From an uncultured Gammaproteobacteria bacterium (GTDB lineage Bacteria; Cyanobacteriota; Vampirovibrionia; LMEP-6097): a DNA stretch of 64,000 nucleotides. The notes under the pieces are model-generated. The model had not been told where the DNA came from, searched no databases, and worked only from the letters and a program-made list of their open reading frames with translations. The position numbers and the translations under genes are program-made. Shown here in pieces: positions 4,094 to 57,198 of this stretch (its first letter is position 1; the number at the start of each line of letters is the position of its first letter). The stretch spans positions 383-64,382 of the forward strand of contig CAZELI010000011.1 of the NCBI GenBank assembly GCA_964512985.1, given 5' to 3'.

Positions 4094-4204
4094 CGTCATC
4101 CTGAGGGAGGGCGAAGCCCGACCGTAAGGATCCACTTTTATTAATAGATTATTCGTAGCAGTGGATCCTTACGTCGCAACCTACGGTTGCTCCTCAGGAT
4201 GACG
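4094..4204. mobile_element. REPIN/MITE-like palindromic doublet
   Basis: Terminal inverted repeats CGTCATCCTGAGG / CCTCAGGATGACG. Inner GGATCCAC...GTGGATCC with a 25-nt spacer. Sits 13 nt after the thrB stop. It is the reverse-orientation counterpart of 57086-57198. Confidence 0.9.
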
Positions 4205-4226: not shown

Positions 4227-5639
4227 ATGCGCCGAATTACTAAGTTAATTTTAGTTTTATTAATATTGTTTTCAAACAGTCCAGTTCAGGCACTATCTGT
4301 TCAACATGAATTAGAAGAAGAAACCAAATATCCAGAAGTTCCACCAGCAAAACTTTATGATAAGGTCTGGAAAATTATTAAAAGTGACTATGTTGACCAA
4401 CATTATAACCATCAAGATTGGGAGATTTGGAGACACCGTTACGACGACTATTTGGAGACTAGAGAAGATTCTTATAAAGCAATAGAGACTATGGTCGCTT
4501 CGCTGGGTGATCGTTATACTAGATTCCTTGACCGTAAAGAGTTTGAAGAAGAGAAAGAATCGATAGAAGCAGAATTGACTGGAGTCGGCATACAGATAGG
4601 GTTAGACAAATCTGGGCAAGTGATTGTTATTGCTCCAATAGAAGGTACTCCAGGAGCTAATGCTGATCTGAGACCTAACGATTTAATTATAGAAATAGAT
4701 GGCAAGAACACCTCGGGCATTTCCATCGAGCAAGCAGCGAAGATGATTCGTGGACCAGTAGGCAGCTCGGTGACACTCACTGTTAAACGCGAAAAAGAAA
4801 AGATGAAGAAGACTATTACACGAGCTGTGATTCCTATTAAGTCTATTCCTGACGGACAAGCTAAGATGATTTTTGATGATATTGGTTATATTCGCCTTAG
4901 TACATTCATCTCTAAAGATACAGTGGAAGAATTATTAGATGCTATGGATAAGCTTGATAAAGATGCTAAGGGCTATATTATCGACTTGCGTAATAATCCA
5001 GGTGGTCTATTAAACAACGCAATGGTAATCTCTGACATGTTTCTGAACGAAGGTATTATAGTTAGCACTGTTAACAAGAATGGGTATGTTAGTTCATTTA
5101 ACTCTCGTAAAATCAGTTCTTCTGATAAACCTTTAGCATTGTTGGTGAATAGCAACAGCGCAAGCGCTAGTGAGATTTTCGCAGGGGCTCTGAGAGACAA
5201 TGGTAGAGCAGATATCATTGGAACTACGACATTTGGTAAGGGGTTAGTACAAGCAATTAATAAGCTTGGTGATGGTAGTGGCGTGAACGTAACTATCGCT
5301 AAATATCTCACACCTAATAAAACAGACATAAATAAGAAAGGTATTAAGCCTGATTATGAAGTGAAACTAGAGAAGCTTGATTATGACCTCAGTAGAGGAC
5401 CTTGGTTCTTTGATCCCAATGTTAAGTTTGGTATAAGACAACCAGAAGACGCTCAAGACAAGCAACTTATGAAAGCTGTCGAAGTACTTAAACCTAAGAT
5501 CGCTGATGCTAAGCCACTTGCGAAAGAAATAATTGATAAAGTAACTGAACTCGATAAGAAGTACGCTGAAAAAGAAGCCGAAGAGAAAAAGAAAGAAGAG
5601 AAAGACAAACAAAAAGATAAAGTTAAGGCTGAGAAGTAA
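4227..5639 (+). CDS. ctpA: C-terminal processing peptidase (S41 family) with PDZ domain and lysine-rich tail
   Basis: Signal peptide; PDZ-like GVGIQIGLDKSGQVIVIAPIEGTPGANADLRPNDLIIEIDG; catalytic region NSASASEIFAGAL ... TFGKG. TATAAT at 4215-4220 lies 6 nt before the ATG. Confidence 0.88.
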   Translation: MRRITKLILVLLILFSNSPVQALSVQHELEEETKYPEVPPAKLYDKVWKIIKSDYVDQHYNHQDWEIWRHRYDDYLETREDSYKAIETMVASLGDRYTRFLDRKEFEEEKESIEAELTGVGIQIGLDKSGQVIVIAPIEGTPGANADLRPNDLIIEIDGKNTSGISIEQAAKMIRGPVGSSVTLTVKREKEKMKKTITRAVIPIKSIPDGQAKMIFDDIGYIRLSTFISKDTVEELLDAMDKLDKDAKGYIIDLRNNPGGLLNNAMVISDMFLNEGIIVSTVNKNGYVSSFNSRKISSSDKPLALLVNSNSASASEIFAGALRDNGRADIIGTTTFGKGLVQAINKLGDGSGVNVTIAKYLTPNKTDINKKGIKPDYEVKLEKLDYDLSRGPWFFDPNVKFGIRQPEDAQDKQLMKAVEVLKPKIADAKPLAKEIIDKVTELDKKYAEKEAEEKKKEEKDKQKDKVKAEK

Positions 5640-5664
5640 ATCTATATTGCTATAATATTCTCTC

Positions 5665-6672
5665 GTGCCTGTCAAAGAACTAACATCAATCAAAATTGGA
5701 GACCTAACTCTAAATGGCTGTGTCTACATACCTCCCATGGCAGGGGTTACGGATATAGTTTATAGAAAGCTTTGTAGAGAGTTTGATCCAGATGTATTAC
5801 TCTCGACAGAGATGCTTAGCTCTAAATCTCTTACTTACGCTCACAAGAATTCTAAAACTCATAGACATACAGCGCGCATGGATATACCTGAAGCTGATCC
5901 ATTAACTGGTATCCAATTATTTGGGCATGAACCAGAGGTAATGGCAGAAGCCGCCCAGATCGCAGAAGAATCTGGAGCTAAATTTATCGATATAAATATG
6001 GGCTGTCCTGTATCTAAGATAGTGAAAGGGCAAGATGGAGCAGCACTGATGCGTGAACCTGATCTAGCTTGTGACATCGTGAGGGCAGTAATCGCAGCCA
6101 CTAAATTACCTGTCACCGTTAAAACTCGCTTAGGCTGGTGCGCAGAGAGCATGCATACTCCTGAACTCGCTAAGAGGTTTGAAGGATTAGGCGTACAAGC
6201 CATGACTATTCATGGCAGAACCAGATCTCAATTATATAGTGGTCAAGCTAACTGGGACCAAATTGCGCAAGTCGTCTCAGCAGTGAAGATTCCAATATTT
6301 GCTAATGGTGATATCAAAGATCTAAATGATGCTAAGAAAATATTAGAAGTTACTGGCGCTGTAGGCATGGCGATAGCGCGCGCGACAATGGGCAAGCCTT
6401 GGTTCTCCAAGCAAGTGAATCATTATATTCGCACTAGTGAGATTCTTCCAGAACCCAATATCCAAGAGCGATTGGCATTAGCCTTAAAACATTGTCAAAT
6501 GTTAGTAGAGTATAAGGGACTAGAAATAGGTATCAGAGAAAGTCGTAGACATATAGTGAGCTATACTGCTGGAATGAAAGGCGCCGCCAAAATCCGCCCT
6601 CTTATACTTGCTGTTAATTCAGTAGCAGAAGCCGAGAAATTAATTGATGAGCTTTTGGTTTTGAATTCTTAA
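5665..6672 (+). CDS. dusB: tRNA-dihydrouridine synthase
   Basis: Motifs PPMAGVTD, IDINMGCPVSKIVK, TIHGRTR. GTG start. TATAAT at 5651-5656 lies 8 nt upstream. Confidence 0.88.
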   Translation: MPVKELTSIKIGDLTLNGCVYIPPMAGVTDIVYRKLCREFDPDVLLSTEMLSSKSLTYAHKNSKTHRHTARMDIPEADPLTGIQLFGHEPEVMAEAAQIAEESGAKFIDINMGCPVSKIVKGQDGAALMREPDLACDIVRAVIAATKLPVTVKTRLGWCAESMHTPELAKRFEGLGVQAMTIHGRTRSQLYSGQANWDQIAQVVSAVKIPIFANGDIKDLNDAKKILEVTGAVGMAIARATMGKPWFSKQVNHYIRTSEILPEPNIQERLALALKHCQMLVEYKGLEIGIRESRRHIVSYTAGMKGAAKIRPLILAVNSVAEAEKLIDELLVLNS

Positions 6673-26051: not shown

Positions 26052-26094
26052 TTTCGTCATCCTAAGTATAGGCATCAACTTAAGCCGAAAAGCT

Positions 26095-26203
26095 CGTCAT
26101 CCTGAGGAGGAGCCGAAGGCGACGACGTCAGGATCCACTACTAAGAAACATCATGAATAGTGGATCCTGACGTCGCAACCTACGGTTGCTCCTCAGGATG
26201 ACG
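26095..26203. mobile_element. REPIN/MITE-like palindromic doublet
   Basis: CGTCATCCTGAGGAGGAGCCGAAGGCGACGACGTCAGGATCCAC, a 21-nt spacer, then GTGGATCCTGACGTCGCAACCTACGGTTGCTCCTCAGGATGACG. Ends 6 nt from the cysN stop. A 12-nt fragment CGTCATCCTAAG is at 26055-26066. Confidence 0.9.
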
Positions 26204-26208
26204 AGACC

Positions 26209-27507
26209 TTACACCACCATGCCAGCAGCAACAGTGTTATTCGTAATCTCGTCTATAAGTATAAAAGCCCCAGTAATTCTATTCTCAGAATACTTGTCTA
26301 CACATAGTGGCTTAAGAACTTTGAAACTTACATTAGCTATATCATTGAGCGCAAGCTCAGAAGTTTCTTGTTTCTCGTAACTATTTATATCTAGTTTGTA
26401 ATTAATTTTGGTTGCCATAGCTTTAACCTTATTAGAAGTATGTTTCAATAAATACTTCTTCCCAGATTCAAACTTCTGCTCTGCCATCCAACAAAGATTC
26501 GCATTAAATTCTTTTACAGGAGTTGCTTCTTCATCCACCTTAGCAAGCATATCACCGCGACTAGTATCGATCTCATCCTCTAGAACTATAGTCACAGATT
26601 GTCTAGCAATAGCTTCGTCAATACTTCCATTAAACTCAGCTATAGTCTTAACCCGAGACTTCATGCCTGATGGCAAGCTTATAAGTTCATCACCTATTTT
26701 CACAGTACCGCTTGCAATCTGTCCCGCAAAGCCTCTGAAATCAGGGTTCTCTAGAGTGTCCACTCTAATTACATATTGAACTGGTAAACGGAAAGGTAGA
26801 TGAGTAATATTATGCTGTACATCTACAGACTCTAAGATATCAATGATACTTACTCCTTGATACCAAGGCATATTAGTACTTTTATTTACGACGTTATCAC
26901 CCTTAAGCGCAGAAATAGGAATGAAATTAAACTGAGACTCATCGATACCAAGCTTCCCAATCAAAACTTTAAAATCATTAACAATATTATTGAAGACATC
27001 TTCTGAATAATCTACCAAGTCCATCTTGTTAACAGCAACGATGAAGTTCGGGATACCAAGCAAGCTAGATATCAAAGCATGTCTACGAGACTGATTTAAT
27101 ATACCCTTACGTGCGTCGATAAGTATGATAGTAAGATGCGCCGTAGACGCGCCAGTCACCATATTACGTGTGTATTGTTCATGACCTGGAGTATCAGCAA
27201 TAATAAACTTACGCTTAGGCGTAGAGAAGTATCTATAAGCTACATCTATAGTGATTCCTTGCTCACGCTCTGCTGCTAATCCATCTGTCAGTAGCGAGAA
27301 ATCTATCCCCTCATCACTTACAAAGCCCTTCTTCGAACTTGTCTTCTCGACTGCGACTAATTGATCTTCAAAGATACTTTTAGAGTCATAGAGCATACGC
27401 CCTATAAGAGTAGACTTACCATCATCGACACTACCAACCGTAGTGAAGCGAAGTATATCCTGCACATCAGAACATTTATCATTAAGCAATGCACATTGAG
27501 TTTTCAT
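26209..27507 (-). CDS. cysN: Sulfate adenylyltransferase subunit 1 (GTPase), no APS-kinase domain
   Basis: GSVDDGKST, DTPGHEQY, NKMD. Start placed at MKTQCALL (ATG at 27507), directly after the upstream stop (TAAAATG). Confidence 0.9.
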   Translation of the reverse strand: MKTQCALLNDKCSDVQDILRFTTVGSVDDGKSTLIGRMLYDSKSIFEDQLVAVEKTSSKKGFVSDEGIDFSLLTDGLAAEREQGITIDVAYRYFSTPKRKFIIADTPGHEQYTRNMVTGASTAHLTIILIDARKGILNQSRRHALISSLLGIPNFIVAVNKMDLVDYSEDVFNNIVNDFKVLIGKLGIDESQFNFIPISALKGDNVVNKSTNMPWYQGVSIIDILESVDVQHNITHLPFRLPVQYVIRVDTLENPDFRGFAGQIASGTVKIGDELISLPSGMKSRVKTIAEFNGSIDEAIARQSVTIVLEDEIDTSRGDMLAKVDEEATPVKEFNANLCWMAEQKFESGKKYLLKHTSNKVKAMATKINYKLDINSYEKQETSELALNDIANVSFKVLKPLCVDKYSENRITGAFILIDEITNNTVAAGMVV

Positions 27508-27508
27508 T

Positions 27509-27548
27509 TTAGAAATACCCTTCCTTCTTTTTCTGTTCCATTGATAAG
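27509..27548. repeat. Copy 2 of the duplicated cysD 3' end
   Basis: Aligns with 28191-28230. 30 of 33 positions are identical in the core (plus strand ATACCCTTCCTTCTT..CCATTGAT). Confidence 0.8.
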
Positions 27549-27847
27549 CCTTTAGCACTGATAGCACATTGTAAAAAATACTTTTGAAAATATTCTATGG
27601 GAGTGCCATAAAGATCACCACCATAGTAAGTATCACAAAAAGTTTCTTTCAATCTACCTATTTCTTTCTTACGGTAAAGTGGCCAGCGTGAATCATTAAG
27701 ACTTGCATTGAATAAGTCTACTGCTCTAAAGAACGCATTCTCGGCATGATCTTCTTTTCCACGTTTCTTCCAGCTAGCATATCGTTCCACTTCACTACCG
27801 ATATTGCCAAGCTGTTCAAGCAAAGACATAGTGTGAAAACTACTCAC
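27509..27847 (-). CDS. Small hypothetical protein 'Y' whose C-terminus duplicates the cysD tail
   Basis: 112 aa, predicted helical. Contains LGNIGSEVERYASWKKRGKEDHAENAF. Ends [11 protein letters not shown], as CysD does. The GTG start overlaps the stop of X (GTGA); the alternative start is ATG at 27829. Confidence 0.6.
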   Translation of the reverse strand: MSSFHTMSLLEQLGNIGSEVERYASWKKRGKEDHAENAFFRAVDLFNASLNDSRWPLYRKKEIGRLKETFCDTYYGGDLYGTPIEYFQKYFLQCAISAKGLSMEQKKKEGYF

Positions 27848-28191
27848 TTTATTTTCCCCTCAATTATTCTAATAATCTCTTTTCTAATATTCTCATCTTC
27901 GACGTATCGTGAGCGATTATTCTGATTTGGTCTAATATTTATCATAGAGTCATATTCAACCCAGTTAGATCTATCTTCATCAGGGTAAATATTAAAACCC
28001 CATACATCACTTTGCTGAGAGCCATCTGCGAGCAAAGCTTGCTCTGCATCCACATGCAATTCTGGTCCCAAAACAATAGACTCTCTTACGATATCAACAG
28101 CCCCTTTAACCATATCCTCAAACCCGCCATGAGCTAAATCTTTAAGTTCTTCCAGTGAGATATGATCTTTAATAACTTTAATATCAAACAT
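27844..28191 (-). CDS. Small hypothetical protein 'X' (pattern recalled as DUF5674-like, unverified)
   Basis: About 115 aa with GPELHVDAEQALLADGSQQSDVWGFNIYP...YDSMINIRPNQNNRSRYVED. The ATG at 28191 shares one base with the cysD stop (TGATG). Confidence 0.6.
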   Translation of the reverse strand: MFDIKVIKDHISLEELKDLAHGGFEDMVKGAVDIVRESIVLGPELHVDAEQALLADGSQQSDVWGFNIYPDEDRSNWVEYDSMINIRPNQNNRSRYVEDENIRKEIIRIIEGKIK

Positions 28192-28230
28192 CAAAAGTAC
28201 CCTTCCTTCTTCTTCTGCTCCATTGATGAG
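28191..28230. repeat. Copy 1 of the duplicated segment (the authentic cysD 3' end)
   Basis: See 27509-27548. Both copies encode [10 protein letters not shown] followed by a stop. Confidence 0.8.
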
Positions 28231-29114
28231 TCTGAACCTAGGTCTATGACACGGTTCTCGCGTTCTGATTTACGAGCAAGTTTAGCTTCTTCGATGATGC
28301 CATCTATAGTAGTGACATCTGACTGGACTGCTCCTGTACATGGCATGCAACCAAGTGAACGGAAACGAGTTTTCATCTTCACTACTTCTTCGCCTTCTTT
28401 AGGGCTAGTAAACTCACTAGATCTATCTATAGGAATAATAATTCCATTACGCACTACTACCTCGCGCTCTACAGCATAATAGATCGGTACTATAGGAATA
28501 TTTTCGATTTTAATATACTCCCAGATATCTACTTCAGTCCAGTTAGACAGCGGAAACACTCTTATAGACTCGCCTTCATTGATCTCTGAATTATATAGAT
28601 TCCATAATTCTGGGCGTTGGTTCTTAGGATCCCACTGACCAAACTCATCACGAATCGAATAAACTCTCTCCTTAGCGCGGGATTTCTCTTCTTCTCTACG
28701 AGCGCCACCGAAAGCAGCATCAAAACCATACTTGGCAAGCCCACTCAAAAGTCCACCTGTTTTCAGAGCGGCACAACACTTATCAGTACCGTATTTAAAA
28801 GGGTTCATTTTACTTGCGATCGCATCTTCATTACGATAAACAAGCAACTTACCACCGATACTATTAATAAACCAATCCCTAAACTCATACATCTCTGGAA
28901 ACTTATAACCAGTATCCACATGCAAAAACGGAAACGGTACAGGCGCTGGGAAGAAAGCCTTACGCGCAAGATGCACCATCACACTAGAATCCTTACCCAC
29001 CGAATAAAGCATTACTGGATTTTTGAACTCTGCAGCTACTTCACGAATAATATGAATCGACTCTGCTTCTAATTGCTTGAGGTGATTTAATTTAGTTTCT
29101 TGTTTTACTGCCAT
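28191..29114 (-). CDS. cysD: Sulfate adenylyltransferase subunit 2
   Basis: PAPS-reductase-fold motifs [40 protein letters not shown]. Confidence 0.9.
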
Positions 29115-29452
29115 TATCTAATGCAGGAAATTTTAACATTTATCTCGCTTCCCTCTTGAAAACCCTCAAAAATCTTATACATGTCATGTATTAACTTATC
29201 TAAATCAATATTATCTAAGCGAGCTTTATTATCCTTAAAGTTTTTCTGGGCTCTAAGCCATACTTTTTCAGCCCCAATAAGCCTGTTTTCTTGTAATAAG
29301 TGCAAGGCTACAGCACATTGAATAATGCCCTGCACTAATTTCTTATAGTCATCTGCTGGGAGTTGTTTCCAATATTGCTCTAAAACTTCATGAGCTACAA
29401 AGTATTTAGCCTGATTAAAAAGTTGAATACCATGCTCAAATAAAGTCTCCAT
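29114..29452 (-). CDS. DUF309-like helical protein
   Basis: [25 protein letters not shown]...[15 protein letters not shown]. Its stop abuts the cysD start. Confidence 0.65.
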
Positions 29453-57085: not shown

Positions 57086-57198
57086 CGTCATCCTGAGGAG
57101 CAACCGTAGGTTGCGACGTAAGGATCCACTATTTCGAGATAAATTTCTAATTAAGAGTGGATCCTTACGGTCGGGCTTCGCCCTCCCTCAGGATGACG
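57086..57198. mobile_element. REPIN/MITE-like palindromic doublet
   Basis: CGTCATCCTGAGGAGCAACCGTAGGTTGCGACGTAAGGATCCAC, a 27-nt spacer, then GTGGATCCTTACGGTCGGGCTTCGCCCTCCCTCAGGATGACG. Has the same two modules as 4094-4204 in opposite order. Confidence 0.9.

Follow-up and report, generated by a model that had tools for sequence, protein, structure and literature searches.

The described systems closest to the locus reported here are the phages and integrative and conjugative elements that insert through att sites at the 3′ ends of tRNA, tmRNA or protein genes, the gene cassettes of integrons, type II toxin–antitoxin pairs and, as the uninterrupted counterpart, the canonical cysDN/cysDNC operon. 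Integrative elements leave the target gene intact and are flanked by a repeat of its 3′ end, which could support precise excision; integron cassettes are small promoterless open reading frames (ORFs) in an expressed array that rely on upstream signals; and type II toxin–antitoxin pairs consist of two overlapping genes of about 110 codons, patchily distributed and in variable neighbourhoods. All of these traits are seen in, or proposed for, a 682-bp module of two genes, here called X and Y, that lies exactly within the cysD-stop/cysN-start junction of the sulfate-activation operon on a 64,000-nucleotide (nt) stretch of contig CAZELI010000011.1 from an uncultured bacterium of the Melainabacteria (hereafter the window, meaning the whole of this stretch). 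We report that X and Y are an insertion, that they form a conserved pair in unrelated genomes, and that Y of the window ends in a captured copy of the CysD C-terminus that selection appears to have retained.

The locus departs from each of these systems in specific ways. Unlike integrative elements, it has yielded no integrase, the insert measures only 682 bp, the two repeat copies have diverged (87% identity), one of them is translated as the C-terminus of Y and bears the marks of selection, and a related clade carries the same genes free of any repeat. Integron cassettes differ in that no attI or IntI accompanies X and Y, which are two genes forming a fixed pair in the genomes examined, and a general repeat search, which used no dedicated attC model, found no attC-like inverted repeat at the cassette end. 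Compared with type II toxin–antitoxin systems, X and Y show high sequence conservation, the invariant residues of X resemble those of an enzyme, neither protein gave a DNA-binding domain, and Y is sometimes present alone. The flanking genes and the TAAAATG/TAATG type of junction are ordinary for a cysDN or cysDNC operon, but here the coupling has taken in two foreign genes, and the junction is present twice.

An insertion in a sulfate-activation operon

In the window, cysD (28191–29114) and cysN (26209–27507, ATG at 27507) lie on the minus strand, as do all genes of the run described here, and encode an intact small subunit (307 residues) and the GTPase subunit (432 residues) of sulfate adenylyltransferase. 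Both products score above the cut-offs of their NCBIfam equivalog models (459.3 bits against 413 for NF009214; 611.2 bits against 590 for NF003478). Between them lie X (27844–28191; 115 residues, ATG start) and Y (27509–27847; 112 residues, GTG start), and upstream of cysD a DUF309 gene (29114–29452; PF03745, E value 4.6e-20) comes first in the run, so that the minus-strand order is DUF309, cysD, X, Y, cysN. The run is uninterrupted and all its junctions overlap or abut: TAATG joins the DUF309 stop to the cysD ATG, TGATG the cysD stop to the X ATG, and GTGA the X stop to the Y GTG start, and the junction of the Y stop with the cysN start is TAAAATG. The last three had been given in an earlier note on this DNA and are as it read them. 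Shine–Dalgarno-like sequences (GGAAGGG or GAGGGG) stand 8–10 nt upstream of starts in the run. Across this region, matches to promoter-like and terminator-like consensus sequences do not exceed what shuffled sequence gives, and Rfam and tRNA scans gave no match near the cassette. That the insert plugs into a coupled operon, as the note proposed, is what overlapping and abutting junctions would predict, and we picture X and Y as promoterless genes that would be read within one translationally coupled run from DUF309 to cysN.

Relatives were taken as the closest matches from a CysD scan, one genome per species, with titles naming Melainabacteria, Caenarcaniphilales or Cyanobacteriota; their loci are numbered with the prefix L. 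In L008, L010–L016 and L019, which have the order cysD–cysN–trpC, cysD is followed directly by cysN, and DUF309 stands upstream of cysD in L008 and L010–L013. The empty junction reads TTCTAATG in L008 and TAAAATG in L011, L014 and L015, and TAATG also occurs among the empty sites; the start of X in the window occupies the place that the start of cysN has there. Because most close relatives with the order DUF309–cysD–cysN–trpC have an empty junction, X and Y are an insertion, as the earlier note had claimed.

The occupied junctions are of two kinds. In the window, in L089 (X 92% identical) and in L087/L088 (X 83%), the cassette comes with a repeat of the cysD 3′ end, and Y has 112 residues and a tail of GL[S/T] followed by the CysD decapeptide. 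In L001/L002 and L090 (X 70%), no second cysD tail is present, the Y stop overlaps the cysN start, and Y has 105–106 residues ending in AAKNTKVNG or AAKNTKVLRS. A junction that holds X and Y and lacks the duplicated tail, which the note had counted against its own reading if it held for all relatives, is thus the state of L001, L002 and L090 but not of the others. The architecture of the window recurs with diverged sequence in the independent assemblies L177, L178, L089, L087 and L088, which rules out an artefact of assembly.

In neighbour-joining trees built from the CysN and CysD on either side, the repeat-bearing clade joins L007 (82% bootstrap), a locus that holds another insert, and the repeat-free clade is sister to the empty-site L010 (100% on CysN, 94% on CysD); the distribution of the cassette is therefore patchy and the two cassette clades are not sisters. 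Between these clades, synonymous differences in X and Y are near saturation (proportion of differing synonymous sites, pS, 0.7–0.9), with a ratio of nonsynonymous to synonymous proportions (pN/pS) of 0.16–0.25. Together with a guanine-plus-cytosine fraction of 0.365 in the cassette against 0.367 in the window, these values argue that the cassette is old and functional in both clades. Five relatives (L007, L008, L014, L015 and L019) are labelled ‘uncultured Gammaproteobacteria’; they group with Melainabacteria by CysD/CysN phylogeny and share the cysD–cysN–trpC order, and the labels are probably wrong.

Origin of the duplicated cysD tail

The strongest repeat in the region is a direct repeat of 39 nt, with 34 of 39 positions identical (87%), between 28195–28233 and 27513–27551, both read on the minus strand. 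The upstream copy comprises the last 12 codons of cysD and part of the thirteenth-last; the downstream copy stands at the end of Y. Elsewhere in the 64-kb window every site falls short of 24/39 when matched to the cysD 39-mer, and the best score in 200 random 64-kb sequences drawn from a second-order Markov model was 27/39, so the similarity that the note had reported is well above chance. Also as reported there, CysD and Y share their C-terminal end, which is identical over 11 residues. GGAAGGG stands 8 nt before the X start in the upstream copy and 10 nt before the cysN ATG in the downstream copy, and the downstream copy, with the stop at 27509–27511 and the spacer, amounts to the ancestral cysD-stop/cysN-start junction TAAAATG. 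The note had seen this junction as preserved downstream of Y, and its presence at the empty sites L011, L014 and L015 bears this out.

Proteins of the Y family end at about FAxAAR plus two to four residues, and in the family alignment Y of the window runs on with 12 residues of the CysD C-terminus. Y is therefore a chimera, which goes beyond the earlier note: a core of approximately residues 1–100 (27548–27847) is followed by a tail of 12 codons copied from the cysD 3′ end (27512–27547), and its own C-terminus has been replaced. The donor sequence is itself conserved. In all of the roughly 85 loci examined, from many phyla, CysD ends, directly before the stop, in the near-invariant peptide ME[QD]KK[KR][EQ]GYF, which is also present in Pseudomonas CysD of solved structure (1ZUN_A), to which CysD of the window aligns over its full length, tail included. 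A second copy of this tail occurs among these loci only in the clade of the window, as does a Y ending in GL[ST] plus the CysD decapeptide. The literature searched describes no role for the CysD tail.

At the right junction, in the clade of the window only, Y is fused in frame to another copy of the terminal 12 cysD codons, with the stop and the spacer. This duplicated junction recreates the native ribosome-binding region of cysN (GGAAGGG, TAAAATG), which would restore cysN translation and subunit balance. In the explanation that we favour, the repeat came from one-off recombination with no dedicated recombinase. Either a circle that carried a cysD tail entered by a Campbell-type event, or DNA of an empty-site relative took part in homology-facilitated illegitimate recombination. 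As long as the two copies stay alike, they would also permit clean deletion back to an intact cysD–cysN junction, and such deletion would help to explain the patchy distribution.

A possible though less probable sequence of events is that the cassette entered free of any repeat and that in a later recombination, homologous in cysN and illegitimate where Y ends, the stop of Y and the start of cysN were overwritten. The donor would be an empty-site relative or a sister chromosome, and its native cysD-tail/cysN junction would have been selected for restored cysN translation. The repeat-free form does exist (L001, L002 and L090), the N-termini of CysN differ between the two clades, and between the two copies in the window there are 5 differences over 36 coding positions, four synonymous and one nonsynonymous, the pattern to be expected of a second copy donated by a diverged, functional cysD. 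Against this order of events, phylogenetic discordance was seen along neither cysN nor cysD, and it is indistinguishable from the reverse, in which the repeat was original and was deleted in the L001 clade. A vestige of a deleted tail was sought in L001 and L090; the 4–5-nt coincidence in L001 was rejected as evidence and L090 showed nothing, so neither holds a convincing trace.

Selection on the captured tail

The codons of the tail were compared among the three tail-bearing lineages (the window, L089 and L087/L088). Across the 12 codons we count three to five synonymous differences at 5.3 synonymous sites and none or one nonsynonymous difference at 30.7 sites, and pN/pS in the Y core is 0.01–0.06 among the same lineages. 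Six of seven tail changes fall at third codon positions, for which a binomial estimate gives about 0.007 if changes are even across codon positions. The first tail codon specifies leucine in Y against serine in CysD in all three lineages, so the duplication predates their split. This selection pattern, a second result beyond the earlier note, indicates that the Y copy has since evolved independently under purifying selection, constrained at the level of amino acids. In L087/L088 the tail is intact although a reverse ORF of 537 residues now separates Y from cysN.

The same conservation might instead be a by-product of a role of this stretch in ribosome binding or re-initiation for cysN, combined with occasional gene conversion from the cysD tail, an account that we consider tenable yet unlikely. 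It draws on the invariant block AAGAAGGAAGGG, which is the Shine–Dalgarno region and is probably constrained as a ribosome-binding site, and on the last two codons of the Y tail, which match the organism’s own cysD copy in L089 and L087. Outside that block, however, the changes fall mostly (six of seven) at third codon positions, which points to a constraint on protein and not on RNA; the leucine-for-serine difference from cysD is fixed in three lineages, 5 differences over 36 coding positions separate the two copies in the window, and the tail persists in L087/L088 though cysN is no longer adjacent.

That the tail has been kept at the amino-acid level suggests that the peptide now does something on Y. 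One speculative proposal, which we hold to be rather improbable, is that Y uses the captured CysD decapeptide as a docking or mimic peptide, tethering the DUF5674–Y pair to CysN or another partner of the CysD tail, or competing with CysD.

Mobility of the cassette

The earlier note took the repeat to suggest an att-like or target-duplicating insertion. In its strongest form this would make X–Y a site-specific mobile unit, with the cysD 3′ end as an att-like target, the 39-nt repeat as the attL/attR core, and a recombinase encoded elsewhere. Direct repeats do flank the insert in the clade of the window, the cassette occupies the same junction in two non-sister clades, and the junction hosts other inserts (the reverse ORF in L007, the reverse 537-residue ORF in L087/L088 and a palindromic element in L010). 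Such a unit is nonetheless quite unlikely: neither the cassette nor its annotated syntenic flanks encode a recombinase (integrase or transposase), a recombinase elsewhere in the genome being possible. The clade of L001, L002 and L090 has no repeat; the repeat copies have diverged, and one has been translated within Y since before three lineages split; in the other genomes examined, ordinary genes surround the pair and the flanks are not shared; and no viral copies were found. A transposon or insertion sequence fares no better, as there is no transposase among the cassette ORFs and no terminal inverted repeat in 27500–28240, and the typical target-site duplication of a transposon is far shorter than 36–39 nt. 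With no transposase, integrase or terminal inverted repeats, a diverged 39-nt repeat and a repeat-free clade, we take the cassette to be probably not a mobile element, and the mechanism proposed in the note is not borne out.

X and Y as a conserved pair

X is a full-length member of DUF5674 (PF18924), with an E value of 2.7e-31, 108.2 bits against a cut-off of 27, and coverage of profile positions 2–107 of 109, which settles the assignment that the note had offered as unverified; 35 of 35 aligned homologues of X match the same family. Neither function nor structure is known for DUF5674, and a full-text literature search found no mention of it. Across phyla, the 35 homologues show 57% mean column identity and 16 invariant residues, mostly polar (D26, K29, D33, H46, D48, E50, S58, N67, N85, N92 and S94, among others), a conservation profile that suggests an enzyme or ligand binder. 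The AlphaFold2 model of X is a small alpha/beta fold with a predicted local distance difference test score (pLDDT) of 90.8. Y, modelled as an up–down four-helix bundle (pLDDT 92.6), matches no Pfam or NCBIfam model and belongs to a partner family of DUF5674, with members of about 110 residues that bear EQLGNIGSEV...R...D.RW...KEI.R.RE motifs and are encoded directly downstream of DUF5674. A word-index search returned 69 relatives of Y, mostly from Patescibacteria, and an exhaustive profile search 1,795 clusters at 50% identity (E value ≤ 1e-3), nearly all of them stand-alone proteins of 100–120 residues; the longer members were checked for fusions and none was informative. Overall pN/pS is 0.14–0.25 for X and 0.01–0.19 for the Y core. 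Neither X nor Y gave a meaningful match when its profile was compared with the sequences in the PDB, and weak-match Pfam scans of all members of both alignments found no recurrent family besides DUF5674. A suspected likeness of the GNIGSEV helix of Y to MazG-type pyrophosphatases was dropped, as no search supported it.

X and Y form a fixed two-gene unit. Among the 80 best metagenome loci encoding a relative of Y, 66 have a DUF5674 gene directly upstream on the same strand, as do 60 of the 70 with enough upstream sequence to be informative. In the reverse direction, three DUF5674 loci picked blind to Y, including one from Brachyspira hyodysenteriae, all have a Y homologue immediately 3′ of X (E values 2e-28 to 1e-46). 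The note had asked whether the two co-occur elsewhere, and they do, in many unrelated genomes. Ten loci have a Y-family gene with no DUF5674 upstream (L108, L111, L120, L125, L127, L129, L142, L143, L144 and L147), so Y can exist alone. The genes that flank the pair vary, 136 of 225 flanking ORFs being singletons and the largest cluster having four members. The pair is common in Patescibacteria, which have small genomes, and is also found in Brachyspira and Melainabacteria; the nearest pair outside cysDN is that of L006. Neither the DUF5674–Y partnership nor its placement inside cysDN was found in the literature searched.

We propose, as the most likely reading, that X and Y are the two subunits of a cytoplasmic enzyme or ligand-binding complex that has a general, housekeeping-type role, and this is the least certain part of our account. 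The proposal follows from the strong conservation, the invariant polar residues of X, the spread through Patescibacteria and the housekeeping neighbours there. Since the pair occurs mostly in lineages that lack cysDN, its function is unlikely to be specific to sulfur. A toxin–antitoxin, defence or phage role is unsupported: PADLOC returned no match for X or Y, PHROGs no significant match, and 2.9 million viral contigs held no relative of X. The idea that X–Y is a toxin–antitoxin, addiction or defence module persisting selfishly in an essential operon is very improbable. Its two small overlapping genes, variable neighbourhoods, patchiness among Melainabacteria and a genuine PemK module in the next intergenic gap of L089 speak for it; against it stand the lack of any PADLOC, PHROGs or Pfam toxin or antitoxin match, the lack of a DNA-binding antitoxin fold among the results, the strong cross-phylum conservation of X (toxin–antitoxin pairs being fast-evolving), the wide occurrence among housekeeping genes in Patescibacteria, and the ability of Y to occur alone.

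The favoured explanation and the points against it

Taken together, the explanation to which we give a probability of roughly 60% is that X–Y is an old operon insertion with a captured CysD tail, expressed through coupling to its neighbours, originating in a one-off recombination and serving a general-use function. As an event it is of a known kind, an operon insertion in which the 3′ end of the target is duplicated; what is unusual is a captured tail that selection has kept.

Several points weigh against this explanation. Transcription and translational coupling are read from sequence alone. The tail statistics come from 12 codons in three lineages, and selection at the protein level could be mimicked if the cysD tail, itself under selection, now and then converted the copy on Y and a Shine–Dalgarno constraint acted as well. 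The repeat may be as old as the insertion itself or may be the product of later remodelling. Empty-site lineages separate the two cassette clades, which calls for several losses, two gains or an old transfer, and identity in sliding windows over cysD and cysN gives no hint that the flanks were recently transferred along with the cassette from one of these clades to the other. As to function, Foldseek found no significant fold match for the X model in the PDB (best E value 1.4) or in the viral library BFVD (best E value 0.64), and for the Y model, searched against the PDB only, it returned generic helical bundles, FliS-like at best (E value 0.3); the function proposed for X–Y is tentative.

Other features of the junction and its surroundings

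The cysD–cysN junction seems to be a recurrent insertion spot. L007 carries another insert of about 900 nt there (4907–5804 of that locus), with a reverse ORF that has no Pfam match and is broken by a run of N, next to a CysD 87% and a CysN 80% identical to those of the window. The reverse ORF of 537 residues between the tail-bearing Y and cysN (5719–7332 in L087, 756–2369 in L088) likewise has no Pfam match. In L010 a short palindromic element (CGTCATTGCGAGGAGCTTTGCGACGAAGCAATC) lies within the junction at 1724–1785 and is similar in type to a longer palindrome of the window.

That palindrome, near-perfect over 113 nt, lies at 26093–26205 between cysN and trpC, with a predicted RNA folding energy of −89.3 kcal/mol (z-score −14.9). 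Further copies are found at about 4094–4204 and at 57086–57198, with single motif matches near 1840, 6750, 20573, 47573 and 54399, and the window has 11 occurrences of the terminal motif CGTCATCCTGAGGAG, where 0 are expected. The element looks like a member of a repeat family of the miniature inverted-repeat transposable element or repetitive extragenic palindromic type. In L089 the gap that holds the palindrome in the window contains, at 2394–2964, an ORF of 79 residues and a PemK/MazF-type toxin gene (E value 1.7e-12). The DUF309 gene adjoins cysD upstream in the window and in the syntenic loci L001, L008–L013 and L087, and may be an unrecognised accessory of the sulfate-activation operon.

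Significance

The locus illustrates how, in nature, a tightly coupled operon can take in a pair of foreign genes and stay unbroken, through duplication of the junction together with the ribosome-binding site of the next gene, and the same event made a chimeric protein whose borrowed tail appears to have been retained by selection. It also defines DUF5674 and an unnamed four-helix protein as a unit across Patescibacteria, Brachyspira and Melainabacteria, and confident structural models with no known fold relatives make this pair a tractable target for functional work. If the borrowed tail does act as a docking or mimic peptide, a widespread module of two uncharacterised proteins would, in one clade of Melainabacteria, have become part of the control of sulfate activation, and docking of the tail on CysN would provide the first functional handle on the X–Y pair.

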